Notes: generated by a model from the letters alone, not told the origin. Shown: positions 4,437 through 51,899, counted from the first letter of the stretch. The stretch: 64,000 nucleotides of DNA from Lytechinus pictus (GCF_037042905.1 NW_026974140.1:19468001-19532000), one strand, 5' to 3'. Numbers and translations: made by a program.

Positions 4437-4556
4437 GTAAGTTCAAGGAACTATCACAAATTATGGGTGGGGGTATGTTTATTTCTTGCCGCAGCACTAT
4501 TTTGTTGTAGAATCCATTTTAAGAAGCAGTTTTCTAATGAAAATTGATATTCTTAA

Positions 4557-6821: not shown

Positions 6822-6938
6822 ATGGTTGCCAGGCATTTCAGGACCATTCCAGTGAGAGAAAAAGAAGCTCTGACTTATTTTATCTACATGGTTAAGAATA
6901 ATAAGAGTCGCTTTGACCAAAAACATGACCACAGCTAG
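6822..6938 (+). CDS. SAP30L: SAP30L coding exon 4 of 4 (not in the ORF track)
   Basis: cag| then MVARHFRTIPVREKEALTYFIYMVKNNKSRFDQKHDHS and TAG; matches the SAP30-family C-terminal HF..IPV.EKE.L.YFIYMVK pattern. Confidence 0.95.
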   Translation: MVARHFRTIPVREKEALTYFIYMVKNNKSRFDQKHDHS

Positions 6939-27901: not shown

Positions 27902-28050
27902 TTTTTCGGCATCACCAATTTTTCCAAAGGGCAGATAGCTCTGGGGAACCTTGATTTAAGCTACGCCTTCCATTGTTCTCTTCATCCATTTCTTTCACAA
28001 AATATTTAAATAAAAGAGTTGCCAAAGCTGTTGTACATATATGATTTCCC
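27902..28050 (+). mobile_element. 3' fragment of the 411-bp repeat (post-tRNA part) followed by (TA)n
   Basis: tttttcggcatcacc...ggcagatagctctggggaaccttgatttaagctacgcc...gagttgccaaagctgttgtacat matches about 46417-46560. Confidence 0.85.
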
Positions 28051-28058
28051 ATATATAT

Positions 28059-28092
<34 letters not shown>

Positions 28093-30090
28093 CACATGTA
28101 TATATATACAGTATATATATTTAAAGAAAGTAGTAATTGTAATTTCATTTGACCGCACCACGCTCATGATTTATGTCAGTTTATAAACTGATTCTTTTTA
28201 AATATATTTCAATCAAAACTTTAAATTACAGTCAATTACAATCGACCAATTAAAAAAATTACCTAAAAGAATTTCGCCCCGATGAGCTACCGAAATAAAA
28301 ATTGATTTGCACAGTTTTTCTTCACTAAATCAACTTCCTGAAACCACAGTGGAAGAACAGAAGTGACTTCATAATTGATTATTTCCTTGTATTGTTTTGT
28401 GATATATATCTTCCTGTAATTCCAAAACACAGCTCCTATGGTGCTAGATGTCAATCATGATGTGTCCCAGTATATACTAGTGAGGGGTTTTCACATATCA
28501 CTAAAAGCATGTTATAACTACCCTATCATCTTAGAAATTAATGTAAAAACAATATATGAAAGTTTGCATGTATTTTCAAAAAGAGTGCTTAATTGACTTC
28601 TTCTTTTTTAAGTTTCAGATCCATTTATCGGGTGAAAGAAATTGTCTTACCTTAATGTAATTGATTTGATGATCCTCTCTCAGACCCAATCAAATATTAA
28701 TTGATGATAGTGAACATCAAATCCAAGCATCTATTCCTGGACAGCTCAGGCCACGAATAAAGCTGTCTCTTATGGTTCAGCTCCATCAATGAAATGGAAA
28801 CAAGCCGCCAAACATGCCAAAAAGACGATCGAAATGTAATTCTACGAACGATATGTCTGTGTATCGAAATAACTACATACCCTTTTTGGCAACACTCTTC
28901 AAACTTTTGATGGACGACTTTTCGTACTTGAGTCAAATCCAACGTGTACTTGATATGCCAAATGACAGATAGAAAAAGAGATTTGCGGGTCGCACTCTCG
29001 TTTGCCAGCCAAATCTCCTAAATATTCGAGAAGTTGAGGATAAAAACATGAACTTTTTTGTTGGAAATCAATATTCAAAGCACATGGGATTCACAGTCAT
29101 AAGTATGCTAATGGTACTTTTATTCATCTATTAAAATATGATGACATGTTTGGTAATAAATGTCGAAACAGCTTTGGCACAACTTTATTGTATATTCGAG
29201 TTGAAACAATACGATTGGATTGAAATAAGAACACGAAGTCTACAACTTTACTACAAAAAATCACACCACACAATGAAGAATAAAATATCAAGGAAAAGAA
29301 AAGGATAAGTTTGAAAGTAAGAGGGAACTGATCAATCTTTGTATGTTGATGAGTATAACCTGGTTTTAGGTACAGTCATCCATCATGAAATATAATCTCA
29401 CTATCATGGCTTGAGAGAGGAAGTGAATGAATGCAAAGACAGAGTCAGCAAACGGTCCTTGTTAGACAAGTTAGGATCGCTTTATAGATTTTTTGAAACG
29501 CAATTGCCTCCCGTTTTGGGGTCACATTTTTTTCTTATTGTCAGGAAATTATGAAAAAAAAATCTACAATCAGTTTGAGCCATTTTATTCATGAAGTCCT
29601 GAATCCACCCATGGTAGATTTATAAAAGTATATGAAATCTAGTTACAAGTAAATCAAAGCGTTGCTAACAAAACTTTAAAACTGAGTTTCATTTTCATAA
29701 ACTTGTGACATCGAAGTCACAGAAGCTTATAAAAACTGTAATTGGTCTGGACGTTTCGAGCATGTAAACTCGGATCTTCATATATCCGACAGTCCTTTTT
29801 CAGGGCGACTTTACATGGAGACACTGAAAACCTGATGTTCTAGCCTTACCACCATGCAAACCTTCAAAACTCAAGATAAATTTTGTAGCCAAGGCATTAT
29901 AAATAACCAGTGGCGTAGACAGGTTCGTACACCTGGGGGGGATGACTGGGCTGCCAACGCTAGCGAGGGAGCGAAGCGACCGAGAGGGGGGAGGGTGTGG
30001 GAGGGGGGTGTCCCCCCTCCCACGGTAGGGAGCTTTTGCAATTTTGAACTTGAAATCGTGCAATCTGATGCATACTTAATGAGGTAAAAT

Positions 30091-30106
30091 AACACACACA
30101 AGCGCG

Positions 30107-30146
<40 letters not shown>

Positions 30147-30190
30147 CTCACATACACACACACACACGGGTGCGCGCACCACACACATAC
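30091..30190. repeat. (CA)n microsatellite
   Basis: Direct reading. Confidence 0.9.
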
Positions 30191-30705
30191 TACGCCTTGA
30201 ATGGACAGACATACATCGACAAGATCTACACACCGTGGCATACGAATACAGAATGGACTGACACATAGTATTGCATATTGAACCACACTACGTATTTATT
30301 TATCTCTGTGAATTTTGCTGTTACACCTCTTCAGAAAAAAAAAAACAATGTCAACTGTGTACACGCAGGTATAGTCTTTGTTGTCTTGATATGGGTATGT
30401 GGTTATGAATGAAAACAGCCTCTGTGGCCATTTGTGAATAGAACACATAAACAACAAACAAATAACAATATGTCTGTTCATTATAAAGCATAATGAATAC
30501 GTACATACTATGCTTTTTTTTACCTCAAAGAAACAGGCATAGTATCCATAGATGGATATTGGCTGACGGCTCATTAACATACAGATACAAAAAACATAAA
30601 CAGTATCACTATGATCCATGGAGTAACAATACTGCTTTGTAAGTTTGTGAAGAAATCGGAACCATAACGGCATTGCATCGTTTCAAATTAGGGCATTATT
30701 TACTT

Positions 30706-30844
30706 NNNNNNNNNNNNNNNNNNNNNNNNNNNNNNNNNNNNNNNNNNNNNNNNNNNNNNNNNNNNNNNNNNNNNNNNNNNNNNNNNNNNNNNNNNNNNNN
30801 NNNNNNNNNNNNNNNNNNNNNNNNNNNNNNNNNNNNNNNNNNNN
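30706..30844. other. Assembly gap (N run)
   Basis: Direct reading. Confidence 1.
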
Positions 30845-31398
30845 AACTTATCCATTGGCAACTACTGAAGGATCGCGGTAAAATGACTTGTGATCACGCT
30901 TGGGAACATCAGCCACAAACGATCACCACGATCAATAACAGCACCATATATTGGAACTGTGGCGTACTAACGGATAGAACCATCAACTGCAACAAGCCGG
31001 ACATCATCGTCAGAGACAACAACGTAGTAAATATCATTGAGGTCTCTGTTCCCCACGATATCAACATTGCTGTAAAGGAAAGAGACAAACGGCTCAAGTA
31101 TCAAGACCTAAGGATTGAGATCGAGAGGATGTGGAACGTGAAAGCAGAGGTCACACCAGTCATCATTGGTCACTCAGGAATGGTGAAGAAGGGAATGGAA
31201 GCCTGCATAACCAAGATCTCTCCTCACCTTCGGATGTACGACATTCAGAAGGCAGCTATCTTGGGTACAACCAGATTGATAAGAAAGACTCTCGGACATT
31301 AGTAGTGTAAAGTTCCTAGTTGCACTTGAAATTACTTGGTGCTTTTTGTTAGAGCAAAGTTATTCAAGAAAAAAATACGGACTTGATCCTGTTTAGAG

Positions 31399-31400
<2 letters not shown>
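30845..31400 (+). mobile_element. 3' end of a non-LTR retrotransposon with restriction-like endonuclease (R4/Dong-like); ORF remnant ends at 31302
   Basis: LIHWQL...WEHQP...IYWN...TDRTINCNKPDIIV...IIEVSVP...KRLKYQDL...PVIIG..G...IQKAAILGT: PD-(D/E)xK RLE domain; short 3' UTR then (TAA)n; 5' side lost in the gap. Confidence 0.88.
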
Positions 31401-31470
<70 letters not shown>

Positions 31471-31473
31471 TAA
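31400..31473. repeat. (TAA)n microsatellite, retrotransposon tail or target
   Basis: Direct reading. Confidence 0.95.
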
Positions 31474-32301
31474 TGAGCTTGCTTGGAACAGCTCATATCT
31501 TACGGAAGGTCTTGAATTAGAAAGAGAAGTGAACAATGAGAAGAGGACCCATTTGATAGAATATAGAACAATAACCCTAGATTTCTGGAAGAAGTCCGGT
31601 TGCTGTTTAATATACCAACATAACATCAAGTTGTGGACAATGGAAATAATAATAATAATAATAATACAAATAAAAAATAATACTAATACAAATAATAATG
31701 CTAATACTAATAGGTTCCTTTTATCTCGCATTTCAAGACAGGGTAAATTCACACTGCGCTTTATTATTATTATTATCATTATTATCATCATCATAATTAT
31801 TATTATTATTAATATTATAATTGTTATCATTATTATTATTACTATTATTATCATCATTATGACTTATTAAGTAACCGAATATCATTCCCCAAAACCTGGG
31901 GGGGGGGATGATTGTACATGCCATCCCCCCCACCTTGTGAGGTGGGGGGGATGCATCCCCCTCATCCCCCCCGTTGTCTACGCCCCTGTAAATAACGATA
32001 AGCGACAGCCAGCTTAGCACATTGTTTTGACAGCTTTGATTTATTCATGAAATAAGTATTGTCTCTATCATGTCAAATATAATAATTCATTATTATCAAG
32101 ATTATTGTACAATAGTTAGTCTTTCATACAGAAACTATATTCTAATAAGATGTGCAGTGGTTTTCACAGTACACCATGCATCTTTCTTGGGCAATTGTTT
32201 GCCCTGGAAATGACCAACAATTGCCCAAGAAAGATACATGGTGTACCGTGAAATCCATTATATACATCTTCTTCTTCGCCATGGAAACCTTTAGAAGTTA
32301 C

Positions 32302-33312
32302 CATAGGTGTCGATTTCGTGTGATGATTGGGGGGGGGGGGGGGTGATTGGTGTCTGAGTCCCGGCGAGAGTGTTGGAGGCGGGTATCCCCCCTTCCACGG
32401 TAGGGACGTTTTAAAAAATTGACATGCGAAAACCTCATTTTAGAGCATACTAAACTCACTTTTTAGGCCATAATATTGTAGTTAACTTTCACTATTGAAT
32501 TACCATATATTGTAACACACAAGTTTCAAGTATTTCATATCAATAAAAAGAACAAATCAAAACATTGACAGTAAGGGGAGTAGGCCTACTTGAATATGGA
32601 ATAGCATATCTAAGTAACGCTTAAAACAACCAATAAGAACACATTTATTGATCATAAGGTAAAAAAACATATACAAATACAGTTCCGTGTAAAGTCAAAA
32701 TGTCATTTCTATGAGATAACTACATGATTTTTTTAATGTCGTGTCAGATTCCGACTGTTAACATGGCAAAAACAAAATAAAGAAGTATCTTAAAAGACTT
32801 TTCAAATAGTTTATATAGAAGTCAAATCTATTTGTGAGATTTAGGGCCTATACATCATCTTCTTGGAAGATGTTATAGCGTAAGCTTACATTTTAATGGA
32901 TCGCCTGAATTGTTGTTTAAACAATTTTGCTTGTATGCACCATCGAAAAATGAGAGAGGGCCTAAACATGTGCATTTATTCATGGCTCATGAAATTACCC
33001 TATATCGGCAAGTTCACTTATCACATATGTATAGATGATTGCGTTAACTATTTTCAAAACAGACTTGTCAACTTCAGAAAAAACAACAACTAAGGATTAA
33101 CTGATTTGGGGAACGATTCTTTTTCTTATTTGTACTTCTTTCTTGTCAAATTTTATTGATTTTTATTTTAATAAATTATCGATTTTTTTCTGGAGATATA
33201 CTGTTTTTTATGCCCTCGAAATATTGGGAGATGATTGTACAGGCCACTCCCCCCTGAACTTTTTTTTGGGGGATATATCCCCTATCCCCCCTCTCCGGGA
33301 TCGACACCCATG
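32302..33312. mobile_element. Non-autonomous DNA transposon with CAT...ATG termini and 8-bp TSD (P- or hAT-like)
   Basis: CATAGGTGTCGAT / ATCGACACCCATG TIRs; GAAGTTAC duplicated at 32294-32301 and 33313-33320. Confidence 0.85.
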
Positions 33313-34305
33313 GAAGTTACAGTCGAACAATTTTCTTCATCGTTTGTGTGCGTGCGCGCATGCTGGGGGAATATTTATATTTAGTTTATTCTTTACAATA
33401 CAGCCCGTGTGATTGATTGATGAGGGAGGATGATAGTGTCAGATGAGAACAGGAACATGATTCCCAAGATGATTTGAATAAAGGATAGAATTTACATAGT
33501 ATCACTCATGATCACAAGTTTGATGATCCCCATGTCAGTTCAATCAAGAATTACAAAGAGGCGACGTGTTTCAAAATATTTAATCAGGAATTGATTAAAA
33601 TAGTATTTTCTGATCGTTTATATACGTACGTTGGCCTTGCTAAATATTTGAAGCAATACTGGATTTGATAAAACATCGACCGAAACCAAATTGAAAGTTG
33701 CTTGAAAAGAAACGCAGATTGATGGAAGACTGAACAATTTCGAACAAACAATAATAATTGTGGACTTTGTTACATTATTTAAAAAGAATTATTGTAATCA
33801 CTATATTGTGATTTCCATCTACCCACATGTGATGTACATGTAATGGGACAACTCATCCATTTACCTGTTTACTCCTCTAAACAAAATCATATCTAATTAT
33901 ATTCTTGATCTATTGATTATCCCCATGAAGGGGGGGGGGGACCCGAAAATGTCTGATAATTAAGTCTATATATAAATGGAAGAATTGTTTCATACCGATT
34001 GTCATTATCTAATTTTTCAAACAGCCGCAAACTATTCCTTGCCCGATTTCACCTTCTGTTTTTTATTATTATTATTATCGGACAAATTAGCAAGGATTTT
34101 TCTCAGTTAAGAATGAGGTGATCTCAAAATCACGAATGATATTCATCAAGAGTAAACCATTGGGTGTAAACGTAAAAACTTGTTCTCGGCATACCGAACT
34201 AAGGTTGAAAAGAGAAAATAAAACAGTAAAAAAATTAGATGTTCATGCAGCTTCGCTCCATGGAGATATGAAGACTTCCGTGCCCCCCTTTCCCTCTCAT
34301 CCGAC

Positions 34306-34843
34306 CCCGGGGGGGGGGGGCACTCGACCAAAAAAGTGGTAGGGGTGTGCCGCGGGCGAGACAAAAAACGGGGGCCTTGGAGCGGGCTTATTGTAAAAAG
34401 GAGGGTCCTCGGAACGGGCTTCGGAACTACAATTTTGTGAAAACGGGGGTCCTTGGAACGGATCGCCATGCAGCGTGCGAGTACGTGCGTATGTACCCCT
34501 ATGGAACGGGCATGCGTGCATGATGCAGCTATACCATAGACGAGCTATACGCGGCCTCCGCTGGGTGCGCTAGCGCAGAGACGATGGTCGGACAGCGCTC
34601 GGCGGCCGCTTTTCACCAAAATTGCAGCAGATCAATGCGACCGGAACGGCGTAACGAAAAATATGCGAAGCTTTGGAGCGGATTTCTTTCTTTTTTTTTT
34701 CTCGATAAGAACAAAGTGCTATGCCTTGGAGCGGCTTTCTTTGTTTTTTGTCTCGATAAGACAAAAATGCTATGCCTCGGAACGAAAATTTGAGTGTGAA
34801 AATGGGGGTCCCCTCCGCGGCACATACCCACTATGCATTATAT
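34306..34843. mobile_element. Second copy of the 21341-21924 element, right terminus lost
   Basis: Colinear, high similarity to 21341-21900. Confidence 0.8.
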
Positions 34844-37800
34844 ACATGCCCGACCCACAAACCGATAATTGGGTTCACGAACTGACTTTCTTTTCTTTAA
34901 TGATTCAGCAGGGTTGAATGAGCCATAATAAGTGGCTGATCCAGGATCTGTTAAGGCAAGTGAATATCTAGGGGCTCACTTTGTCTTTTAAAAACTTTGT
35001 TGATAAACACAACAAAGGTCACAGGTCACCACATTTTCTGATTTGAGTGGTAACGGAGTGGGGGGGGGGGGGGGGGGGCTACATCGACAACTTATTGAAG
35101 GTGAAACATAATTACTGATGAATAGAACACGTACATTCTCCTGCTATAGCATTTCGTTGAAAAAGAAAATAGGAATATAAGCCTATAAGCCTATATATCA
35201 AAACTCCTTGGTTTTATGAACATGAAAGCGAATCGTCCGTGTTTCAATTTCCTTGAACGTCTAGTCACATCAATTGAGTCTGTTATATCATGTATATTGT
35301 TTAACATATCCAATTCTTTAGAACAACATGTATTGGCTTCAATTATAACAAAATAATTCCAAAAGTTAATGCTTTGTATGCAAGTATCTTCTTGAACATG
35401 ACTGTGTAGTGTAGTTTAAGAAAGAAACTCATATGAATACTAAAACGATGTGAATTTTAATCCCATGCTTTGTTCCTACTCAACATCCCACCATGATAAT
35501 GCAACAAACGAGGGGCGGCGCTATATGGGGGGGGGGGGGGGGGTGGGAGGTGTCAAGTAGTGGGGAAAACAAGCAAAATAATAGGCAGGGGGAGGGTACA
35601 CCATCATACCCATAGTAAAGTGTCTGATGTGTACCGTGTTAAATGGATGGTCCGGGCTGAAAGTATTTATAGCTTAATATATAGAGTAGAATTCATTGAG
35701 CAAAATGCCAAAAATTTCATCAAAATCGGATAACAAATAACAAAGTTATTGAATTTTAAAGTTTAGCAATATTTTGTGAAAACAGTCGTCATGAATATTC
35801 ATTAGGTGGGCTGATGATGTCACATCCCCACTTGTTCTTTTGTATTTTATTGTATGAAATTAGGTTTATTCAAATTTTCTCCTTCAAGAACTAGAAAAAT
35901 TGGATTGACAACTGATTTAATGCATTAGATATTTATTGCTGCAACTTATTTCATTATAAGGGAGACATATTATTCACACAAGTATGAAATAATGAAAAAA
36001 TTATGATTTTATGTAATAACATAAGAAAACGGAGTTTCTTTCTTAAACTACACTTCAACAGTCATGTTCAAGAAGATAAGGGGGTAAGGGTGGGTTTCAC
36101 GGTGAAATATCGCAATCACACCCATTTTGATCAGTCGATGCGATCTAGTTCACTCTCAAGTAAAATCTAGGATTTCCTCCCTAGCAACCACATATGGTAA
36201 TTCCCCTAGCAACCACGGATAATAACAAGGGATTTTTAGGTCAAGGCTGTCTGGTAGAGTTTCGGGGAAAGAGGTGATTTAAAGGGTATTACGATTAGTA
36301 AAGTAAGGTAAATACGATGATAATGGATAATCTATTAACAATGAAATATATAAATGTATTAAATTGAACCTATGCCAAAAAGTGTTACAAAAACTAATTT
36401 GTTAAGACCTAAAACCTACATAAAAATGAAAGCATAATTTTTTACAGGAAGCTCTAAACTACAAATTTAAACAAATTTCTAGGACAAAATAAAACAAAAA
36501 AAACGCATGTTGATTGTGATGTGAATAGAAAAACAAGAATACATTTGACGGTGTCAGCGCTCTTGAAATTATTGTTTAATATTGTATTTTTTATTATGAA
36601 ACAAATAAAACATAAGTTTTGAATGAAAATGATTGTGTATCTACGGAAAGTATTATCAACACTTTCTGGGAAATCAGCAATCTGTGGCCTTTTGTTTTCT
36701 TTGTAGCTGTTTTGATATTTCAAGGTGCTGATTTTGAAAGGCAAAGTCCACCCCAACAAAGATGATTTGAATGAATAGATGACAATCATAAAATATAGCA
36801 ATGGAATTTTTTTAATTAAAACGGATATAAAAATATTAAAACATTTTACAGTTTTTCCTACCTTTACGAAACAGTTATGCAGAAAGGGCGGCATGCAATG
36901 AGAGAACTAATTACGTCACAAACATACTTTAAATTGTGATTATCTTAATGTTTTCCTACAATCATGAAAAATACATTTCGATTCCACCTTTATTAGAACT
37001 GATAATGAATCAAGTTTTTTTCTCATAAAATTTACAAAAATCGTTTATTACAAGGATTGAATAAAAAAATTGTGTATGACATCATCTTTCTCAGCTGCAT
37101 CACACTGTTTTGAGCATAGACTGATTTATGAAATGAAACAAAGATGCATAACGTTATTATTTCACATTTTGATGTGATCTTAAGTGTTAAGCTTGCTCAA
37201 TTTGTCTCTATCTATTCAAATCAAATTATTGTTGGGTTTAACGTTACCTTTAAGTTGAGCTCATGTGTTGAATAATGATCCACGTCAATCATGTTGAATT
37301 ACCATCACTTTTGTTTTCTCAGCGAAGACAAACAATCCTTTGGCAGTGTCATACTTATCGTTCAATATAAGAATTGAAATTGTCCTTAGTAAGTCTAATG
37401 TAGTTTGACTACACTATGGGATAGTTAAGATATAGTTGGAGGATATTTGGCAAGATATAGAGGTCAAGAGACAAATCTTCTCTTGGCAGAAACCCAGGGA
37501 ATCATGCGTATAACCCTATAGAGTTAAAACACAACATCTGATTTGAGAACACACCTTACTCGACAAGAGATAAGGGAAACAGAACACTTCCTTGGTTGCC
37601 ATACCCATCCTGGGATAGTGACAAGGCTAAGGGTTTACAAGGTACTCAAACTTATTCTTCGTCCTTTCAGGAATTGTACTGTAACATTTCCTTTGACTTT
37701 GCTTCATTAATTTAAATAAGCTCAATTTCAGGAGTAATTAATACAGAGCTGCTGCTTTCTGAGCAACATTTATTAATTTGCTAAATCAATTTGAAATTAT

Positions 37801-39802: not shown

Positions 39803-39976
39803 CAGGGGCTGCCGAAGCGGGGGGGGGGGGGGGGGTGGGCTTCATCCCCCACTTTTTTCCAAAACCGTGTACAAAAAACGTAAAAATTACCATGATTGTG
39901 ATTTTTTGTATGATTAGCCCCCCCCCCCCCACTTTCGGCTCAGCCCCCCACTTTGAAAACCGTTCCGCGGCCCCTG
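39803..39976. mobile_element. 174-bp MITE with CAGGGGC termini
   Basis: caggggctgccgaa / ttccgcggcccctg; AAATA on both flanks. Confidence 0.7.
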
Positions 39977-40722
39977 AAATAGACTGGAATTCGTTCCTGG
40001 TATCACGGAGAGAAACTTGACAAAATATCACATAGTATTTTGTAAACAAGGGATATATTAGAGCACCATTTATGACAAATACAACGTTCCATTAATATTG
40101 ATTAAAAATGCATGATGCTTTTAGCATCGATCGATCGATGACATGTCATTGGAAATAATATCATCAATTTTGTCGGTCTGAAATCGATTTCGTTGGTGGG
40201 ATTGTGGTATCATTTACCCTTATCTGATTTCCAAAATTCCGAAATTTAATTTCCAGAAGCTCAATTCAAGCATTAAAAAAATAATGCAATCAATATCAAT
40301 AATAAAAGCAATTTAAATATATCAAGGCCTACTTATGGCTTGAAAGTAATATTTCATCAAAAAAATCCTGTGTGGTGACAATGACAGGCTAATTTTCCAA
40401 AGTGTCATGTTGGATTAATATTTACATTCTATTTCTTTTTTTTCATGTTGTACATATAATCCATGACCGTTGATCATCTATTTACATTCAATAAGACCAA
40501 GAGCAAATAGCATTTAAGAAAAATCTTTGTCTGAATGTGTTTATGTATGATCGTATTTTACACACTTGTATTTTTCAGATACAAGGAGTTGATATTCTCC
40601 ATCCGACAAGACCACATTTTCATGGGTATATTATATACCCCCGCTCATCGAATCTTGGTTTATTTGCAAAAAATGCCTTTACTTTCTCCACTCCCTGGGG
40701 AGCATTCCAAGAACTTTCATAA

Positions 40723-41225
40723 TCATACAGCATCCATAGCTTGATCTAAATCTACATCATCGAGGTATGACACCATATTAACACCAAGATTCTGTAACAT
40801 CATCCTTTCCATCTCAATTCCATACTGTCTACCTTGTTCGCTATGGATCAAAGCAGCTAAGCTAGTTGATCCTGGGGATACATCACCATCATCATCTTCT
40901 AATGAATCCATTCTTCTCTTATGATAATAACCACAAGGCATATGTATCATCATCTCCCTTGAGGAGCGTAAAGGGGGTGGTGGCTGCTGGTGGTGGTGGT
41001 GGTATGCGGTGGGATGAGGGTGCATCTCCATAATGTGTTGGTATCCCCTACACTCCCGGCTTGTACCGGGTGTGTTAGGATCCATGGGCGAAGCAGGGCG
41101 GTTGATATCTCGAAGGGCAAGACGCATTGAGCTAGCATCTAGTTTAGGTGGTCGATCGTCTAGCTGTTCAAGTTCAGCTGTCTCCATCTCAATAGCTTGG
41201 TTTACCCTTCCTTCTGAGCTGCTTT
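40723..41225 (-). CDS. MFSD6-like coding exon 4 (cytosolic tail)
   Basis: tag|AA AGC in phase 1; ESSSEGRVNQ...DLDQAMDAV then TGA; same frame as track ORF 40723..41256. Confidence 0.85.
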
Positions 41226-41771
41226 CTATAATAACAAAGATGGCAATGCATATCATAATTTAAGTACTTCGATTGTGAATATTTGTGCCAAAGATTGGAA
41301 AACTTCTCATCCCAGTTCCCAGTTCTGAAAAAACCATCAAGCTATTGTTCTTTTAATATACTTGTGGGTGTCATCAAGTTTTTTTTTAAATTAATATTTG
41401 TATTTTGCTTTTGGTACACTATTCAAGCTAGCATAGAGAGAGAGAGAGAGAGCTTAAACAATTAAAGATAAATCAAACTGTCTTTTGATGTAATCATACA
41501 ATTTAGGAGGACTCAAGACTATGATGAACCGTGTTTTAATTGTTTTTTTAATTTGATTTCGGTGGGACCGTTTGGTAAGTACAATAAAGGTTGATGTCAT
41601 TATGCTTTGGTTTGAGTGATTTAAAGTTGGATTGATGCCCGTGTTTTAATTGAAGAAACTTTCTGATATATATATATATATATATTTTTTTTTTTTTACA
41701 GAGAAATTTATGAAAATCTCTTTCACAAGAGCATTTGGAGAAAAAATTTAGAAGCTAGAATGCAAACCAAC

Positions 41772-41975
41772 CTCTCTGGCTGTCGGTCCTGCTACTCCTT
41801 TCATCTGTTCTGAATCTACTGTAGAGTATAGGTGGGTACCTCTTAGTGAAGACATGGTATAAACCTAGATACAGTAATCCAGACAGACCAACTACGAAAG
41901 CTGAGGCACGGAATAAATTACGACTTCCAAACCGATCATAAACCAGTCCTCCTAATAATGTTCCTAGACCCTTTC
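41772..41975 (-). CDS. MFSD6-like coding exon 3 (not in the ORF track)
   Basis: cag|GA AAG...G|gttggt, 204 nt. GKGLGTLLGGLVYDRFGSRNLFRASAFVVGLSGLLYLGLYHVF (last TM helices). Confidence 0.92.
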
Positions 41976-44082
41976 CTGCAGGAAATAAGATTTAATAAGG
42001 AAAGAAAAGAGAGGAGATTTAAAATAGAAAAAGAAAGTTCACCCTCAAGAATATTGGGGCCTACATCATTTTACGGGCTTGTATATCAAACAAGAAAACA
42101 AATCTTAAAAAATAAGATTAGCAATTATGAAACGTAAAAAAAAATAAAAAAATATGTAAATATAATTTTGATTGGATTCCTAATGAGATAAAGATAAAGA
42201 ATCACGTTCCCTTCTATTATAAAACAACAACAACAACAACTAAAATACATCAACAATAAGCCCTTTAAGAACCACATTTTCCCATCTGTCGTGTTTAATC
42301 ATAAAAGAATATATATTCTGTTTTAGAAAGAGCCTCTCAAAATTATTTTCATACCCTAAAATTATATCTGAATACTATAGCCTTTTATAGGCCTAAGGCA
42401 TCTTTCACAATCTAAGTTAACAGACACACACAGAGGGTGACCTATGCTTTAATTCATTGGAGCATTCAACATGATGTATCGCGTTATCTTTTCAGTTCCC
42501 TTGTGATTTATATATAATACATTGATATCAAGTGATAGGTGTAAACGAGAATATATATTTATCAAGTCAGTGTATAAGAGTCCAGTGCAATCCCATCAAG
42601 TAAGGATTTTCATCCTATAGTCATAACTATAGCCTGATTGTTATACACTATCTTTATCCCGTATTAAAAAAATCTATAGTCCATATTCGTGAAATATATT
42701 TCTTAAAAAAATATTATTGTCTACATTTGTCATATTTTTTTTACAGTCAGCTAATTGATTACATGTTTTGAGTGGAAAACCAATAGGTCTACCATTTAAC
42801 ACTAGTAATTCCTATTTTCGCTGTTCATACAAATCCTTAATTTCTGAATGGTTCGATAATTCAATAACCTCGCCCCCCTCATATAATACAATTCGATTTG
42901 ACATGTAGAATGATCGTTATCTGAAGTAGATTGTAAAGTACTATTTTACATCGCTATTAACTTAGTACATATTCAAAATCTGTGTAATATAATACATTGG
43001 TTTATCAATGTAATTTGCTTCTGCTATATTTGTAATTATTTATCAATAAAGTTAATGAATATACTGAATTTCATAAATGTGTTATCATCAGCAGTATATA
43101 GTAATATATACTTCACCTTTACATGGCTATGTAGCTTTTATTTACTTTCCGTCTGAAAATAATAGAGATCACTGCGCAAGTCATTGTGCCATATAATGCT
43201 GACCTGAAGTGAGATTCTATCAAAAGTTTAATGATAATATCTTGTTTTACAGTACACTGAAAGCAATTCCTATTTGTATATTTTCACTATATATTCATAT
43301 TTCTTATAATTTAGCCCCCATTATACTGTTACAATCATGGCAGTGTCCCCCCTTTTTTATTTATGTCTTTTATTAATTCAAATGCAATCACATGCACTAT
43401 CACAAATAATCAAGGCAAATTGTGCTTGATTCCCTTTTTATTTTTTCAATTTCATTACGTACATTTTAGCATAGATTGAATGTGTAACTCGTTAGTGGGA
43501 ATTAATGGTCAAATCTAATTTATATTACATTGCTTACAAACTGCATTCATTTTGAGATTTCACTGCATGATGATAGGGAATTTGGTAAGGAAAAATTTGG
43601 CAAGCAAAAAAAAAGTTATTGCTCCCAAATCTCCGTCATTTGGGAGCAATAAAATCTTTCTTGTCAACCTGATTTCAAGGAGGTACTGCCTATGGTAAAT
43701 AACACACGCAGCATCCCCTGAAAAATCATGGGGGGGGGGGGTACCCCCACCACCCTTGCCTCCCAGGGCAATGCACTAGAATAAATATATTATTCCCATA
43801 ACTATGTTGAGAACTAAATATTATTCTATTGCCAGTTTGTCACTTTTCCTCATTTTTGTCTTTATTTTGAACCACCAGCAGTCTGACAATAATATTTTCA
43901 TATATTATCACATAACACCATTTTTTATTTAGAAACAGATAGAATATTTTGGCCTAATATTGACGCATTATGTACCGATTACAATATAACTACTTGAAGT
44001 ATATATTCCAAGATATGCAGTATAAAGGATTTAAAAATACATTTTTAAATCTAAAAATAATTAGCACTATTGTGAAACATAC

Positions 44083-45696
44083 CAAATCCCATATGAACGC
44101 TGGTGAAGACTGCTTGCAGTGTTAAGGCCAGACCTGGTGGTGCGTTCTGATTGGCATAGGATGTACAAGCGGCCCAAGATAACCCATAGGTGATTCCATG
44201 TAAAAGCTCAAAAGGTATGACTGCCCAGGGATTGCTGATTAGGGAGTATCCTAAGAAACGTACAGTATAGCAGAATAATGAGAAGCAGAGAGCTCCTATA
44301 TGACCAGTGAAGCGTATAACACGGTTAGATAAAAACAAGAAGGGTATCTCTGCAATACAGGTGATAGTAAGTGTCAATCCCATCAGGGTATGAGATGCTT
44401 CAAGTTCTTGAAGATACAGGAAGAGGAATGTTCCAATGACTCCAAAACCCATCCCTAGGATACAGACTGTCACCAGGAATCCTAGGATCTCGGGTTTGCG
44501 GATGAGTCTTGGTATCCTTTGGCACTGTGCTTTGATTGAAGTCTGTAAAGGGAAGACGATAAAAGTTGCAAATACCACCGCGGCCAGCATGAAGGCGAGG
44601 AATAGATAGAATGCAGGATCAAAATGTGCTAGGCTCTTGGATGAATTCCTTGCGTAGTGGTCAATGAGAATACCAGAGATAAGAGAAAAGGCGCCCCATC
44701 CGAAAGCACCCCAGATACGCTGCTTACCAAAGTCATCATGTTTTTGTTGCAGTAATTCCATTGTCGTTGAGTGAAGTATTGGGGAGGTGGTGCATTGGAA
44801 CGTCCTGCTAAACAATATCAAAATGAGCAAGAGAAAAAACGTGGAGAGGAAAGTTGAATCACCATGATCTCTTTCACTTCCTTCAGGTTCGTACTCATGG
44901 CAGTGACATGAGAATGAATGCTGTGTTGCATCACTAATATTCAGGTAAGAGACAAGCGAAATATTAAAAGACGTTGAATTCGTCAAAGGATTTCCGTTAC
45001 TTCTTGAACACCATACATCAGCTTCGTTGTACCTTATATCATCTGACTGTTTTTGGTATATAACTGGTTCACATTGGTAACAAGATGAACCACTTTCCTG
45101 AGAAAAAGAATCATACGCTTCTCCACTATCATTACATCCACTAGTTCTGTTGACACTGACCATCTCTTGTTGAAGGAAACACAGAGTTTGTAAACAAGAT
45201 TCCTCTCTCATCGCTGACGTAGAGTTGTCTTCTACCGTGCCCCTATTTTTCTCACATGATAAACTGTCATTGAGTGCTCTACAAACACTGTAACAGATAC
45301 CGATCCTTGCACCACTGTCATCCTCTAATTGCACTGTCGGTGAAATCTCATTCAAGTACGGTGGAAATTCTGTTACATCCATTGGATGCAAAAGGTCTGA
45401 AGTCCTAAGACTGGGCACATCTTGATCGACAGGTAACTGTGTGGTGATGTTATGATATGCCCCTATTCTCATAGAAGATGGAACAAAAAAGGTCCCAAAC
45501 AGGAATACTGTGGCACCCCCTATGGCTGTAATGAGCACGGCTCTATGGGTGTTAAAGCTATCAGCAATGCTTCCCCATAAGTGTGTAAAGATGAGGGCTA
45601 GGAGTGGTTCCAGACCTCTGATTAAACCGATCTGTGTCGCTGAAAGACCAAGTTGACTCATGTATAAAGGCAAGTATGGTACCAAGCTAGCCAAAC
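44083..45696 (-). CDS. MFSD6-like coding exon 2 (1614 nt)
   Basis: ttgtcttctag|GT TTG...TTT G|gtatgt. PYLPLYMSQLGLS, WGSIADSF, FGKQRIWGAFGWG, FLFLYLQELEAS, AEIPFLF, ELLHGITYGLSW are MFSD6/MFS_1-like motifs; large Cys- and N-glycan-site-rich loop after TM3. Confidence 0.95.
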
Positions 45697-45758
45697 CTAG
45701 AAGACAACGGGGAAACAATAAATAGTAATACCATTTATCCATTACATTAACATGGTGA

Positions 45759-45816
<58 letters not shown>

Positions 45817-45969
45817 GTGTGACATTATACATGTACAACAGCTTTGGCAACTCTTTTATTTTAATATTTTGTTAAATAAATGGATGAAGAGAACAATGGT
45901 AGGCGTAGCTTAAATCAAGGTTCCCCAGAGCTATCTGCCTTTTTGGAAATATTGGTAATGCCGAAAAAA

Positions 45970-46041
45970 TGTCTCTGCCGGGAATCGAACCCGGGCCCCC
46001 AGCTTTGAACGCCGGTGCCTTAACCACTAGACCACAGAGAC
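45970..46041 (-). tRNA. Inverted identical tRNA-like (TCA) copy
   Basis: Reverse complement of 46345-46416. Confidence 0.6.
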
Positions 46042-46344
46042 GGGTTAGTGGCTAGGGCGACCCCGATCCGATTGACCATCAGATAGACAGATCTTCGACA
46101 CTATACCAATTATAATTTCCTTTGTCGGGTGTAGGTGGGTTTTGAACAATGACAAGCCGCCATGCCTCAGCTGGATCAAAGCTACATTGCTTTGATACAG
46201 TACACGTATAGGGGAAAGTATACAAATGTGTGACATTATACATGTACAACAGCTTTGGCAACTCTTTTATTTTAATATTTTAAAATATCGAAGATCTGTC
46301 TATCTGATGGTCAATCGGATCGGGGTCGCCCTAGCCACTAACCC

Positions 46345-46416
46345 GTCTCTGTGGTCTAGTGGTTAAGGCACCGGCGTTCAAAGCTGGGGGCCCGGGTTCG
46401 ATTCCCGGCAGAGACA
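46345..46416 (+). tRNA. tRNA-like gene with TCA anticodon (opal-suppressor-like or pseudo-tRNA) inside a repeat unit
   Basis: Acceptor GTCTCTG/CAGAGAC, D arm GTCT-AGTGGTTA-AGGC, anticodon arm CCGGC-GTTCAAA-GCTGG, variable GGGC, T arm CCGGG-TTCGATT-CCCGG, discriminator A, then T6. A and B boxes intact. Function unproven. Confidence 0.6.
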
Positions 46417-46755
46417 TTTTTTCGGCATTACCAATATTTCCAAAAAGGCAGATAGCTCTGGGGAACCTTGATTTAAGCTACGCCTACCATTGTTCTCTTC
46501 ATCCATTTATTTAACAAAATATTAAAATAAAAGAGTTGCCAAAGCTGTTGTACATGTATAATGTCACACATTTGTATACTTTCCCCTATACGTGTACTGT
46601 ATCAAAGCAATGTAGCTTTGATCCAGCTGAGGCATGGCGGCTTGTCATTGTTCAAAACCCACCTACACCCGACAAAGGAAATTATAATTGGTATAGTGTC
46701 GAAGATCTGTCTATCTGATGGTCAATCGGATCGGGGTCGCCCTAGCCACTAACCC

Positions 46756-46827
46756 GTCTCTGTGGTCTAGTGGTTAAGGCACCGGCGTTCAAAGCTGGGG
46801 GCCCGGGTTCGATTCCCGGCAGAGACA
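46756..46827 (+). tRNA. Second identical tRNA-like (TCA) copy, 411 bp downstream
   Basis: Same sequence as 46345-46416, followed by T6. Confidence 0.6.
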
Positions 46828-46949
46828 TTTTTTCGGCATTACCAATATTTCCAAAAAGGCAGATAGCTCTGGGGAACCTTGATTTAAGCTACGCCTACCA
46901 TTGTTCTCTTCATCCATTTATTTCACAATATATATATTTATATATATAT

Positions 46950-47649
46950 AAACTCCTAACAAAAGTTTGGAAATCTGAGTTTGGCCATTAATTTTTCCAA
47001 ACTCCCAACTTTACACAATACATGTATGATATCATTAAAAAGATCATTTAATTGTCTTTAAAATGATATCCTACATAATATGATTATGGTTCACATGGAG
47101 GTGCAGTGCCTTGAAATGTGGGGCAAGTTCAAAATTCAAAAGTTGCAAAATGTCACAATATTGAAAGTCACTGTTCGTTTTTTTATGTGGTGATGAGTGA
47201 GTTTCTCAGCGGTTTCTTTTGTTGTCATGCACCTTAACATCAACATTAACATGGAATCAAACACACCTCTGCACAAGCAAACACATAACAAACAAACAAA
47301 CATGCATGGGTATTTCAAACCACGACTCAAACCATCTCTCAGATCTCCATGTTAATGTTGATGTTAAGGTGTATGAAAAAAAAAAGAAACCACTAAACTC
47401 ACTCATCACCACGGAAAAAAAGAACCGTGACTTTCAATAATATGTTATTTTGCAACTTTTGAAGTTTGACATTGCCCCACATTTCAAGGCACTGCACCTC
47501 CATGTGAACCATAATTATATCATGTAGGGTATCATTTTAAAGAGAATTAAATGATATTTTCATTGGTATCAATCACACATTAATTTTCACTAAAACTGAG
47601 GAGGGATCATCGATCAGAGTCAGATTTCCAAACTTTTTTTGAAGGGTTT
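46950..47649. mobile_element. Near-palindromic MITE (Tc1/mariner-like) in a TA tract
   Basis: aaaagtttggaaatctga / tcagatttccaaactttt ends; long inner inverted arms (ggttcacatggaggtgcagtgccttgaaatgtggggcaa and its reverse complement). Confidence 0.8.
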
Positions 47650-48597
47650 ATATATATATAAAACATAACTAGAAAAAAAATGTCTTAATGGAACTTCAAA
47701 TGCTTAATATGAAATCAAAGTAAGTACTTAATTGTCTTAATTGTCTTCATTGTCCTCGCATAGTCATATAGGCATACACGATATAACCTTGTTTCCTAAA
47801 TATGCCAACTTTTACTGTATGAAGGCATCATTTTAAAACTTGGTAAAAATATAATAGGATGACGGGGAAATGAGAAAAATGGTTTATAAATTTATGGTGC
47901 CCTATGATATTCTGAGAAGAATGAATCCAAATTAGGAGCATTCTGTAAGCTATTTTGATGTACAAGCATGTAGGATGTACGGATTGAGACCCCACAAGTC
48001 GGAAAATGACAAGGGTGCCCAGGACTGGCAGAGAATCATATATACACCCAACGGATTCTAATCAGAAAAATGAAGTCAATGCGATCAATAATGTCATCTG
48101 CTTTGGTTGGCTTATGAATAATCAAGTTGTCTAGATGATACATTGCCTCTCATTCAAAATTTATGTACAGATCATAAATGTGAGGTTTACCGTAGTCTTC
48201 AACATGTAAAGAATTGTTAAATGCTGAAGCAATCAAGGATCGCTTTTCCAGATATTCTTGCAGTAAAGACAAGGTGTGAATCACATTGTTGTATATTATA
48301 GCAACATGGTGAGAACACTTTGTTGGCAGAAAGATTACTCAAAGCAGATTTCGCCAAAAGTGTAATTGCATTCAGAGATGCAGCAACTTAAAAAAAAATT
48401 CATTTTGTTCCTATAATCCTGTTAAAGGAAATATAACTTTAATTCCTTAGCGTTTTTAGATTATGCTTTGCAATCCCGCGTGGTAGAATAAGATATGATA
48501 ATCCAATTTAGAAATATATTGCTATCTTATTATTCATAAATTATATATATATAATTCATGAATAATAAGAAACCAATATATGTACACACACACACAT

Positions 48598-48649
<52 letters not shown>

Positions 48650-48885
48650 CATTTCTTTCACAAAATATTTAAATAACAGAGTTGCCAAAGCTGTTGATCA
48701 TGTATCATTTCACACACACACACACACACACCCACTCACACACACACACACATATATATATCTATTTATACATATATAACGATATTACTTTCCGCGTGTT
48801 GGACACAGATGAGATAAAAGAGACAAAGAGGTCATGCATTGTAGTTCCAACAAAGTTTAAATAAACTTTGTTGGAACAACTTCTT

Positions 48886-49030
48886 NNNNNNNNNNNNNNN
48901 NNNNNNNNNNNNNNNNNNNNNNNNNNNNNNNNNNNNNNNNNNNNNNNNNNNNNNNNNNNNNNNNNNNNNNNNNNNNNNNNNNNNNNNNNNNNNNNNNNNN
49001 NNNNNNNNNNNNNNNNNNNNNNNNNNNNNN
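48886..49030. other. Assembly gap (N run)
   Basis: Direct reading. Confidence 1.
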
Positions 49031-49368
49031 AGAGAACAATGGTAGGCGTAGCTTAAATCAAGGTTCCCCAGAGCTATCTACCCTTTTTTGGAAAAATTGG
49101 TGATGCCGAAAAAATGCCTCTGCCGGGAATCGAACCCGGGCCCCCAGCTTTGAACGCCGGTGCCTTAAACACTAGACCACAGAGACGGGTTAGTGGCTAG
49201 GGCGACCCCGATCCGATTGACCGTCAGATAGACAGATTTTCGACACCATACCAATTGTAATTTCCTTTGTCGGGTGAAGGTGGGTTTTGAACAATGACAA
49301 GCCGCCATGCCTCAGCTGGATCAAAGCTATTGCTTTGATACAGTACACGTATGGGAGAAAGTATACAC
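49031..49368 (-). mobile_element. Further copy of the 411-bp tRNA-containing repeat, cut by an N gap
   Basis: Colinear with about 45888-46224, scattered substitutions; followed by (TA)n. Confidence 0.85.
49115..49186 (-). tRNA. Diverged tRNA-like (TCA) copy
   Basis: Same fold and anticodon; one acceptor-stem change giving a T-G wobble and one D-loop G>T change. Confidence 0.45.
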
Positions 49369-49370
49369 AC

Positions 49371-49408
<38 letters not shown>

Positions 49409-50642
49409 TTTTGATAATATGAGTTTTACTGGAATATCCATATTCTTTTGTAACCTTTACCGAAGGCTTAGTATATATATATATATATTTATATACACAC
49501 TAAGCGTTCGGTGAAGGTTACAGAAGAATATGGAAATTGCAGTAAAACTCATATGTCAAAAGTTAATTTGAAAGAGAATGCAGAATTCTTAAAGCCTATT
49601 TGTACCTTGGGTTTGATTCATCTGAACTTTAGATACAATTTGGAACGAATTTCTCACTTACTGATCGATTCAATGGTATAAGAAACACCTAAAATTATCA
49701 GCAATCATTTCAAGACTTCAAAAATATTATAAAGTACAAAAAAGAGAAGAAAATTGAATAATTGTGCGAAGCATCTCCTTGCTATTCAAATTCAAAGTTT
49801 GCACAAATGTGTCAATTATTGTGGCTGCAAAGTTAGCCTTGATATTGACACACACCCCGAAGTAGAGAAAAAGAAAGCAAGAAAAATATTGAAACACCTA
49901 TTTGTTTTAGAACTGCATGCTTTTTTGCGTTTACTTTGGTAAGCATATTATTATCTAATTCCGACTACCGCGTTAACAAATAACTAATCCCCCTCTCTCC
50001 ACTCCTCTCTCTCTCTCTACCTTTCAAGATGACATTTAAAATCAATACCTAAATCCGTGATGCGAAATCAGTCCAGCTGTCTTTCAATAATGACCAGACT
50101 GATGAAACATTGATTGACATTTCAAGCTTAAAAGAAACCGACCATTCACCGTATACGTAAACATGTGGACCTATATAATCAGGTAACTTGGTTGCCATTA
50201 CGATCTGCTATATGCCTACCAAATTTTTTAGTCCACCAAAATCAGAATTATCCACACTCTCATACATTCCCACAATCATGGCTATCTGGATTTGAATTAA
50301 TCCAAGGATTTCGAATTCATAAACTTGCAAGGATAGTCTAATTATCGTACTTGTGCATAAACAGTTTTTATTTCATATTTTATAATGCCCGATGTATATT
50401 CATTAAAGCTATTAATGTCAGTACAAATTTGACCAAAATAGCGCAATATCAGTACCACATTTTTTAAAATTCTATCTAATCTATATAGCCTTTAGAGTTA
50501 AATAACCCTAATTTAGACATTTTTGATATGTAATACCACAACCTTCTGCTAGAATTTCACTCTAAAGTTTACGAATCTCTGATAAATCTAGAATAATGAC
50601 CAGCTTAAAATTTGATTTATTTTGAATCTCATTTTCAAAGCA

Positions 50643-50895
50643 CACTGTAAAAACTGTGGTGTTAAAACTTAAACCAGTTTGTGTTAATAGAAGACCACAT
50701 CCTGAGGTGTATAAAATTACACCCTAGAGATTGAACATTACACCAAAGAGTGTTAATGTAACAACCAAAGGTGTAGTAACACCTTTGGGTGTTACTACCT
50801 ATAGGTGTTAAACTAACACTGTCAATTTAACACCGGTGTAAAATAACTGATGTGGTCCTGTATGTACACCGGTTAACACCACAATTTTTGCTGTG
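50643..50895. mobile_element. CACTA-type MITE
   Basis: CACTGTAAAAACTGTGGTGTTAA ... TTAACACCACAATTTTTGCTGTG; CA duplication; many acacc/ggtgt subterminal motifs. Confidence 0.75.
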
Positions 50896-50975
50896 CAGGA
50901 CTAATAGATTTAAATCTTCGAGGTTTAAATTTAAATCCCCAACATTTGAATCTAAATGTAATGTTCGACTATTTT

Positions 50976-51011
<36 letters not shown>

Positions 51012-51062
51012 GTGTGAGATTATACATGTACAACAGCTTTGGCAACTATATGTATATATATA

Positions 51063-51818: not shown

Positions 51819-51899
51819 TTTTGTTTGTTTCTTTGAAGGGGCAGTCCTCCTTAGTCACTTCTTAGCTTTATTCTTATAAATTAATATATAGTATCATAA

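Follow-up and report, generated by a model that had tools for sequence, protein, structure and literature searches.

A 411-bp tRNA-bearing unit at TA tracts of Lytechinus pictus, probably a non-autonomous retroelement mobilised by a Penelope-like element

Penelope-like elements (PLEs) form partial tandems with an adjacent inverted, 5'-truncated copy and an optional tail, and have (TA)n targets, an insertion bias known from Naiad and Hydra; in the available text of Craig et al. (2021; PMC8557442) the partial tandems and the absence of the tail at one end are treated as PLE-specific. The same text reports non-autonomous Chlamys derivatives as head-to-tail copies and states that PLE structures trouble short-read assemblies, and the accessible part of another paper describes palindromes at inverted PLE junctions (PMC3846280). 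An active PLE cuts and extends both strands, in vitro without need for its ribozyme, and starts internally at two sites on multicopy RNA. Naiad combines an N-terminal GIY-YIG with an RT, its UGA recoding has been attributed to SECIS and tRNA-Sec, and the echinoderm entries with (TA)n preference in the supplement of Craig et al. belong to the Hydra clade, none to Naiad. Outside the PLEs, Helenus inflates tRNA gene counts, including those of predicted suppressor tRNAs (PMC10886601). Non-autonomous PLE derivatives are already known, and those for which a description was found are either hammerhead carriers or plain deletion-type derivatives.

The sequence studied here is a 64,000-nt stretch of Lytechinus pictus DNA (the window), in which pieces of a 411-bp non-coding unit occur at five loci, four of them in the first intron of an MFSD6-like gene. 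The unit is numbered 1-411 in the sense of its tRNA, with position 1 at 46223. All five pieces listed in an earlier note on this sequence are present, with coordinates that were off by a few bases at most:

27902..28054, plus strand: 5'-truncated copy, unit 256-409, about 92% identical, with (TA)n at its end
45704..58365, minus strand: first intron of the host MFSD6-like gene (tblastn of P0001/P0002)
45763..45812, no strand: (TA)25 tract bordering the large insertion on the left
45813..46223, minus strand: complete monomer, unit 1-411
46224..46281, minus strand: 58-bp 5'-truncated unit 354-411, a pseudo-LTR/tail-like direct repeat
46275..46288, no strand: head-to-head inversion junction, a 14-bp palindrome including a 6-bp filler (46282-46287)
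46288..46573, plus strand: 5'-truncated unit 126-411, identical to the left-arm monomer
46550..46597, plus strand: 11-bp subterminal inverted repeat, arms 46550-46560 (unit 388-398) and 46587-46597 (unit 14-24)
46574..46928, plus strand: unit 1-355, running into TA at its end, without the last ~55 nt (tail)
48648..48716, plus strand: 5'-truncated copy, unit 340-408, 88% identical, with (TA)17 on one side and (CA)n on the other
49031..49366, minus strand: monomer 1-336, 95% identical, with 12 substitutions and 2 indels
49367..49407, plus strand: 8-bp inverted copy of the unit 3' end (49367-49374), then (TA)17
51010..51047, minus strand: 5'-truncated copy, unit 372-409, within a TA tract

Only two near-full-length variants of the unit occur in the window. 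The copy at 49031..49366 runs into a 145-N gap, that at 27902..28054 begins at the T run immediately 3' of the tRNA, and the copy at 51010..51047 runs past the unit junction, the bases after it agreeing with 411 and 1-5 at all but one position.

The unit shares several characters with described systems. MRC1 and other Chlamys derivatives, as presented in the available text of Craig et al. (2021; PMC8557442), are likewise non-coding, with pseudo-LTRs, head-to-tail copies, 5' truncation, an inverted 5' copy and a microsatellite target, and they have no canonical hammerhead, like Naiad/Chlamys. The Lytechinus unit differs from that description in its intact-looking tRNA gene with a T6 run and in its putative tail of ~55 nt; its host is an animal, and the supplement lists no echinoderm Naiad. 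Hydra-clade PLEs of an echinoderm and a hemichordate (Hydra-1/2_Ajap, Penelope-1/2_SK) have the same (TA)n preference, but differ in being autonomous and in having a hammerhead close to the 3' end, which the unit lacks. Animal non-LTR retrozymes (PMC7229834; bioRxiv 10.64898/2026.07.22.740005) are also non-coding tandem units of a few hundred nt, found as monomers and multimers, with low GC, a proposed PLE dependence and strong RNA folding; however, each of their units has a type I hammerhead, whereas the Lytechinus unit has a tRNA gene and no such motif. Helenus TRIMs (Kojima 2024; PMC10886601) are non-autonomous retroelements with a tRNA-like sequence in the repeat, but have true LTRs, PBS, PPT and, in animals, 4-bp TSDs, none of which is demonstrable in the unit. 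Assignment to Helenus or another TRIM was rejected, as no purine tract lies next to TG at the repeat edge on either strand, CA..TGG sites are off the repeat edges, and the lengths of the direct repeats vary.

All six 3'-type ends lie within 6 bp of a (TA)n or (CA)n tract, and these tracts plus the margin make up 0.97% of the window; an element end touches eight of the 14 tract loci. The statement of the earlier note that every piece abuts a TA or TA/CA tract holds for the 3'-type ends and fails for the 5' end of the 27902 piece, which is off-tract. Element ends and tracts are not fully independent, as insertion may lengthen tracts, and MITE-like elements in the same window are also located at TA runs. 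Inside TA tracts, TSDs are not judgeable. The sense 3' ends fall at unit 408-411 in four of five cases and once at 355-360, where ~55 nt are missing (a single observation; the published PLE tail is 30-40), and the copies have six different 5' ends (unit 1, 126, 256, 340, 354 and 372).

The earlier claim that there are no TIRs needs a caveat, since the monomer has the 11-bp subterminal inverted repeat listed above, whose arms include one G-T pair and are both 13 nt away from the unit junction. In addition, an inverted copy of the 3' end, 8-9 bp long, precedes the 49031-49366 copy. Such a near-palindromic repeat, the three terminal Ts and the 9-bp terminal inverted match of one copy could suggest a DNA element with a captured tRNA gene, either a Helentron-type, HINE/DINE-1-like rolling-circle element or a decayed foldback MITE; sea urchins have such families, and palindromic MITE-like elements located at TA runs abound in the window. 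This origin is nevertheless very improbable. The repeat spacing is 13/13 nt, against 2-4 (5') and 38-60 nt (3') in HINE/DINE-1, the 3' hairpin is weak (-2.6 kcal/mol for the last 45 nt), and the target is (TA)n and not TT. Moreover, the extra 8 bp (the inverted 3' end at 49367) is missing from both tandem junctions, three of the five loci are 3'-only stubs, and the 411-bp monomer contains no long self-inverted match.

Two partial tandems joined head-to-head make up the large insertion, 354-411 plus 1-411 in the left arm and 126-411 plus 1-355 in the right arm. The reported direct repeat of the left arm was confirmed (45813-45870 and 46224-46281, 58 bp, 100% identical, with a period of 411 bp), as was the strand switch at 46281/46288, where the 6-bp filler lies in the 14-bp palindrome 46275-46288. 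A single difference, 351 A>C, separates the right-arm unit at 46574..46928 from the left monomer. The outer end of the inverted arm (355-360) and the inner end of the other arm (354) are in register, a coincidence with a chance of ~13/411, or 3%, that was noticed post hoc; the 49366 copy is in the same register (411 then 1). Any plain DNA inversion would likewise give the 354/355-360 register.

Unit counts in the large insertion may be assembly-dependent: single short reads can resolve only the 58-bp extra piece of the left arm, and the extra unit of the right arm depends on the assembly. The family could even be real while the tandem and inverted interior of the insertion was misassembled from near-identical copies close by, for the arms differ at 1 position in ~1100 bp, there are two sized N gaps in the window, and PLE structures are among those with which short-read assemblies struggle in the account of Craig et al. 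cited above. We regard this as highly improbable. The inversion junction and its filler are unique sequence, and both outer junctions face outward, so that an inversion between them is required; the second copy, 95% identical, has an inversion of its own, and the risk is limited to the number of units.

The constant 3' end, the 5' truncation of varying extent, the partial tandems with an inverted 5'-truncated copy, the junction palindrome and the (TA)n targets agree with the PLE-type architecture recognised in the earlier note, as far as that architecture is set out in the available literature text, and the putative tail absent from one end of the large insertion may do so as well. The best explanation, to which a probability of roughly 0.6 is given, is that the unit is a non-autonomous retroelement and that a (TA)n-targeting PLE mobilises it in trans. 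Tandem copies would produce a multimeric RNA transcript that folds as a rod, and the PLE RT-endonuclease would cut both strands of a TA tract. Reverse transcription could then start at internal sites (408-416 or 355-360), aided by short TATA/CACA matches; it speaks against this that PLE priming in vitro uses a site not homologous to the target, whereas the ends of the Lytechinus unit merge with the target. If both DNA ends primed on the same RNA, the first cDNA would stop at the position of the second primer, and the two cDNAs would be joined head-to-head to give the large insertion. The arms appear to meet in a twin-priming register, which favours a linear multimeric template over a 411-nt circle.

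The tRNA gene of the unit and its copies are as follows:

46345..46416, plus strand: 72-nt tRNA gene, anticodon UCA, unit 183-254 (ARAGORN; Rfam RF00005, 60.9 bits)
46417..46422, plus strand: T6 run directly 3' of the tRNA, unit 255-260
46756..46827, plus strand: second tRNA copy, right arm (ARAGORN; Rfam)
45970..46041, minus strand: tRNA copy, left arm (ARAGORN; Rfam)
49115..49186, minus strand: tRNA copy that differs at two sites, G>T in the D-loop and A>G in the acceptor (Rfam, 54.4 bits)

The tRNA folds as a 7/5 cloverleaf with intact stems, a 4-bp D stem, a 4-nt variable loop and A73; A36-A37-A38 are present and G32 is non-canonical. Its anticodon UCA matches the stop codon UGA and is shared with tRNA-Sec (the ARAGORN label). 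However, tRNA-Sec has 90-101 nt, a 9/4 fold, a 6-bp D stem, a long variable arm and G73, from all of which the unit's tRNA differs; tRNA-Sec identity is ruled out by the 72 nt, the 7/5 fold and A73, and no RF01852 row was listed. No tRNA isotype data were found in two sea urchin genome papers, and blastn of the unit against phages gave marginal matches to tRNA-Asp and tRNA-Cys (E 0.01-0.4 among the best 30 of 44) that are uninformative for isotype. Exact-pattern scans for stray host DNA in bacterial and archaeal genome contigs gave 0 matches. The T6 run is the sole run of at least 4 T in the monomer and may be pol III terminator-like. Under mobilisation by a PLE, the tRNA gene and T6 would be cargo or an internal promoter.

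In tRNA-derived SINEs the tRNA head is at the 5' end and the body follows without a preceding terminator. This identity was rejected, as the tRNA here is internal (183-254) and has T6 directly behind it. A microsatellite-targeting LINE could still have retrocopied a SINE-like or tandem tRNA-gene unit through twin priming of the L1 type, given that L1 insertions are marked by 5' truncation and by 5' inversion accompanied by small indels, and that a non-LTR fragment of the restriction-like-endonuclease type, followed by (AAT)n, is present in the window. That fragment is linked to AAT and not to TA, however, and the tRNA is off the 5' end, so that the 182 bp upstream would be co-mobilised, and T6 follows the tRNA. 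The unit itself ends in neither poly(A) nor a simple repeat, and the text cited above describes partial tandems and a tail missing at one end as PLE-specific. Retrocopying by a LINE is therefore considered improbable.

A Pfam scan of 276 of the 279 ORFs of at least 55 aa in the window (three were dropped for low complexity) gave 0 RT or GIY-YIG matches; only SAP30, MFS and weak chance matches appeared. The search for a GIY-YIG plus RT ORF proposed in the earlier note, run on the window, thus yielded no partner, and PLE membership of the unit and its link to Naiad and UGA recoding are unproven for this reason. The Naiad link is also left without support by the tRNA, which is not tRNA-Sec, and by the Hydra-clade affiliation of the echinoderm (TA)n entries. 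A simple SECIS-like pattern had 0 matches on both strands of the right arm. Every frame of the unit is closed, also when TGA is taken as a sense codon; one 73-aa frame has no homolog among longer proteins, and the sole match of one 67-aa frame is to a 2778-aa protein, over 22 residues at 50%. Four of five short motifs are absent from the consensus file of Craig et al., and the fifth (9 nt) has four uninformative matches. No ribozyme is among the 20 Rfam matches (E up to 10), the hammerhead core CUGANGA is absent from either strand (one 1-mismatch pattern has the wrong spacing), and a descriptor search found no HDV-like fold. The earlier description of the unit as retrozyme-like is not supported, because without a ribozyme found in the unit it is by definition not a retrozyme.

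The monomer folds as a single rod (-143.2 kcal/mol, z -7.45, 0/100 shuffles), in which the tRNA would be masked by its upstream flank, with the anticodon hairpin exposed:

46297..46344, plus strand: segment upstream of the tRNA, unit 135-182, with predicted pairing across the acceptor, D and T arms (helix list, folds)

This segment is found in every tRNA-bearing copy, and the cloverleaf is 22 kcal/mol costlier than the rod. In long RNA the flank would shield the tRNA from RNase P/Z, and a short pol III transcript would fold as the cloverleaf. The rod helices are short (at most 11 bp) compared with those of six DNA palindromes tested (maxima of 19-38 bp on the better strand), but the antisense strand folds too (z -2.95 to -4.6). 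Folding energy is kept in the diverged copy (14 of 400 random mutants equal it; 2 of 400 in the reverse test); four of its seven substitutions at paired sites break the reference pair, 33 of 500 random mutants also gain one compensatory pair, and only two rows are informative for covariation. These values are no more than suggestive of selection acting on the RNA fold. The 7:1 asymmetry of G-U versus A-C was dropped as evidence of selection, as DNA palindromes of the window are comparable in it; their strand asymmetry is also similar to that of the unit. AC-rich stem-loops at the two 3' end sites were discarded as too weak (-0.4 and 0 kcal/mol).

The fold also bears on the proposal of the earlier note that the insertion was copied from a circular or template-jumped RNA. 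The circular fold has z -6.94 (0/100 shuffles), with an 11-bp helix joining both ends, so a circle is possible; the register of the inverted arm favours a linear multimer. A ribozyme-less, retrozyme-like circle of 411 nt, copied round by a PLE RT and perhaps cut by RNase P or Z at the tRNA, would account for the near-identity of the more-than-unit copies and for the start of the 27902 copy at the tRNA 3' end, and its size is at the upper edge of metazoan retrozyme circles (170-400 nt). It is unlikely in view of the missing hammerhead or HDV-like motif, the difference at 351 in one unit and the 22 kcal/mol that separate the cloverleaf from the rod; on a single circle, moreover, the first cDNA would already run over the second priming site in its first turn, so that the 354/355-360 register is unexpected. 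A bolder and rather doubtful reading is that the tRNA replaces the hammerhead in a retroelement with a viroid-like rod RNA and no ribozyme, that a Penelope-type enzyme spreads this element, and that the genome accumulates many UGA-reading tRNA genes. The tRNA would then be both a pol III promoter and a processing site for host RNase P/Z, switched off in the mobile RNA by pairing with its own upstream flank.

The twin-priming register, the predicted tRNA-masking rod, the 7/5 UCA tRNA with T6 and the lack of a ribozyme are newly described here. If true, a short, recently active, tRNA-bearing PLE derivative would correspond, among PLEs, to SINEs and Helenus. The unit offers a compact natural substrate for studying how PLEs build tandem and inverted insertions, and the twin-priming register is a sharp prediction for all genomic copies. 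The unit further accounts for false tRNA-Sec calls in the Lytechinus genome and is a warning against them. It raises the possibility of a transposon-amplified, opal-reading tRNA; if the viroid-like reading were true, such tRNAs could be expressed and could read through stop codons, either the host's or the partner element's.

Self-comparison of the window delimited a non-coding unit of 411 bp (position 1 = 46223, running down to 45813), numbered in the sense of the tRNA gene that it bears at unit positions 183-254. The copies are listed below; no others were found in the window at word size 7 and E up to 1.

Copies of the 411-bp unit found by self-comparison
45813-46281, minus strand: unit 354-411 followed by 1-411 (left arm of the large insertion)
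46288-46928, plus strand: unit 126-411 followed by 1-355 (right arm)
49031-49366, minus strand: unit 1-336, reaching an N gap, 95% identical (diverged copy)
27902-28054: unit 256-409 (stub)
48648-48716: unit 340-408 (stub)
51010-51047, minus strand: unit 372-409 (stub)

The tRNA-bearing repeat is a real feature. The two arms differ only at unit position 351. Sense 3' ends fall at 408-411 in four cases and at 355-360 in a fifth, the opposite end being variable. As the 145-N gap at 48886-49030 has room for the 75 bp missing from the diverged monomer and for some 70 bp of TA besides, this copy is probably full length. The unit length is a multiple of three, the diverged copy has a compensating 2-nt deletion and 2-nt insertion, and the stub at 27902 has a 1-nt deletion; no open frame was found in the unit, TGA read-through included.

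All six 3'-type ends (those matching the unit's 3' end) have a (TA)n/(CA)n tract no more than 6 bp away, such tracts with their margins covering 0.97% of the window, and element ends touch 8 of its 14 tract loci. The 5' ends of two of the three stubs are also at tracts, the exception being the stub at 27902, which begins (27901-27902) at the tRNA 3' end and T run (unit 254-256), the expected point of RNase Z cleavage; this is a single post hoc observation. These counts and the self-comparison bear out the earlier note's description of tandem and inverted pieces at tracts; its statement that TIRs are absent holds with the caveats of an 11-bp subterminal inverted repeat and, in one copy, an 8-9-bp terminal inversion. 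MITE-like inverted-repeat or palindromic elements are also present (46937-47662, 49407-49563, 51059-51824, 13434-14250, 62321-62937, 156-319, 5540-5668 and 32158-32257), three of which directly adjoin family pieces with TA tracts in common. Another dispersed repeat (21347-21902 and 34309-34845, 85% identical) contains 51-52-bp tandem repeats.

The large insertion (45813-46928, arms head-to-head), taken on the minus strand, runs from the flank through an inverted segment, from 355-360 back across the unit junction to 126, and then through a sense segment, 354-411 and 1-411, into (AT)n, with a 6-bp filler inside a 14-bp palindrome at the inversion junction. In unit coordinates the inverted segment's outer end (355-360) adjoins the start of the non-inverted one (354). 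Twin priming would bring two such points together in template coordinates, and the register is that expected of two DNA ends priming on one linear template. It was spotted post hoc, with a probability of about 3% for a chance coincidence within 6 nt, and a plain DNA inversion gives the same register. Taken modulo 411, it stands even with a wrong unit count in the assembly. The diverged copy repeats it (411 to 403 inverted, followed by sense sequence from 1), where the start at position 1 could instead be a natural 5' end. The match of the 51010 stub to the unit junction runs a few bases beyond 411, suggesting that the template extends past that position. A review (PMC4859970) uses the term twin priming, and describes small junction indels, for L1.

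Craig et al. (2021; PMC8557442) describe insertions of Penelope-like elements (PLEs) as partial tandems, truncated at the 5' end, that have an inverted copy beside them and may carry a tail of 30-40 bp; Naiads target (TA)n, Naiad/Chlamys elements have no canonical hammerhead, and non-autonomous head-to-tail PLE derivatives exist. The supplement rows consulted list echinoderm elements as Hydra, which have a hammerhead and prefer (TA)n, and Naiads under hemichordates. Arkhipova et al. (2013; PMC3846280) report palindromes at inverted junctions and unrelated DNA captured in trans, and Frangieh et al. (2024; PMC11167929) a PLE that cuts and extends both strands, with two internal start sites and a dispensable ribozyme, but where it starts there is no homology with the target. 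Because of these accounts taken together, the best reading (probability roughly 0.6) is that a multimeric RNA of the unit would be mobilised in trans by a TA-targeting PLE. The unit works like a PLE passenger and is a putative member of that group.

A search for RT and GIY-YIG domains, proposed earlier, matched neither in 276 ORFs of the window, and contigs of prokaryotic genomes, scanned twice, had zero matches. At 30847-31302 (plus strand) lies a fragment from the C-terminal end of a non-LTR retrotransposon ORF, followed by (AAT)n at 31400-31474; two of five homologs have an RT domain, and its motif and AAT tract suggest an R4/Dong-like element. Searches of the unit for a hammerhead core, an HDV-like fold and Rfam ribozymes found none, whereas a hammerhead defines retrozymes in PMC7229834 and bioRxiv 10.64898/2026.07.22.740005, which speaks against the retrozyme-like reading offered before. 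The LTR, PBS, PPT and TSD required of Helenus (PMC10886601) are not demonstrable in the unit, and it departs from HINE/DINE-1 (PMC4067079) in subTIR spacing, 3' stem-loop and TT target. In the literature searched, including PMC11310861 and PMC11655880, neither a tRNA-bearing PLE-dependent element nor the 411-bp family was described; they may be catalogued in Repbase, Dfam, subscription papers or bioRxiv supplements.

The tRNA, present in four copies, has 72 nt, scores 60.9 bits with Rfam RF00005 and has every stem paired, with a UCA anticodon, A37-A38, a 4-nt variable loop, A73 and a non-canonical G32; T6 follows directly. It falls outside the tRNA-Sec identity criteria of PMC5330540, where false Sec calls by ARAGORN are called frequent, and the UGA link to Naiad selenoproteins drawn in the earlier note found no support here. 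Since 182 bp of upstream sequence is carried along with the tRNA and a terminator-like run comes after it, the mobile RNA is more than the transcript of a simple SINE.

The monomer is predicted to form a single extended rod, with 133 pairs in 27 short helices of which the longest has 11 bp (-143.2 kcal/mol; z -7.45, as good in 0 of 100 shuffles; z -6.94 as a circle), and as a prediction this rod is real. Unit 135-182 is predicted to cover the tRNA acceptor, D and T arms, while the anticodon hairpin branches off to the side. Imposing the cloverleaf on the monomer costs 22 kcal/mol, and the tRNA folded alone forms its acceptor, anticodon and T stems. Over unit 1-336 the diverged copy has -124.2 vs -125.4 for the reference, an energy kept as well by 14 of 400 random mutants with the same spectrum (reverse test: 2 of 400). 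It has one double change, A122-U267 to G122-C267. Against selection on the RNA, a compensatory pair of this kind is seen in 33 of 500 random mutants, and four of the copy's seven substitutions at paired sites break reference pairs. The antisense strand folds too (z -2.95 and -4.6), and without the tRNA the rest of the unit scores no better than z -3.0, which 1 of 28 control windows taken outside the element exceeds. Comparable strand asymmetry occurs in six palindromic DNA elements of the window, yet these have far longer helices. The modelled folds are only suggestive of selection at the RNA level on the rod. The bold reading, in which the tRNA would be a promoter, a switch for processing and an amplified reader of UGA, is improbable.

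The window has the composition of AT-rich animal DNA. The 549-aa translation of one exon has 95% identity with a Lytechinus variegatus MFSD6-like protein, and a second ORF has 99% identity with a protein from Lytechinus pictus, which makes the host a Lytechinus sea urchin. Exons of a SAP30-like gene lie at 2417-6935 (plus strand; Pfam zf-SAP30 and Sin3-binding matches). The first intron of the MFSD6-like gene (45704-58365, minus strand), which also contains a 53-bp minisatellite of about 12 copies (56229-56869), holds four of the five family loci, clustered within 5.3 kb (45704-51062). They fall into at least two sequence variants (common changes at unit 267, 274, 347, 351 and 362), and the clustering may reflect either a local hotspot or repeated targeting. 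The exon 2 acceptor is about 60 bp from the start of the large insertion's TA tract and about 110 bp from the arms (45813-46928), which match each other almost perfectly as inverted repeats over several hundred bp. In the MFSD6-like pre-mRNA, the arms could pair into a long dsRNA hairpin and so influence splicing, editing or small RNAs.
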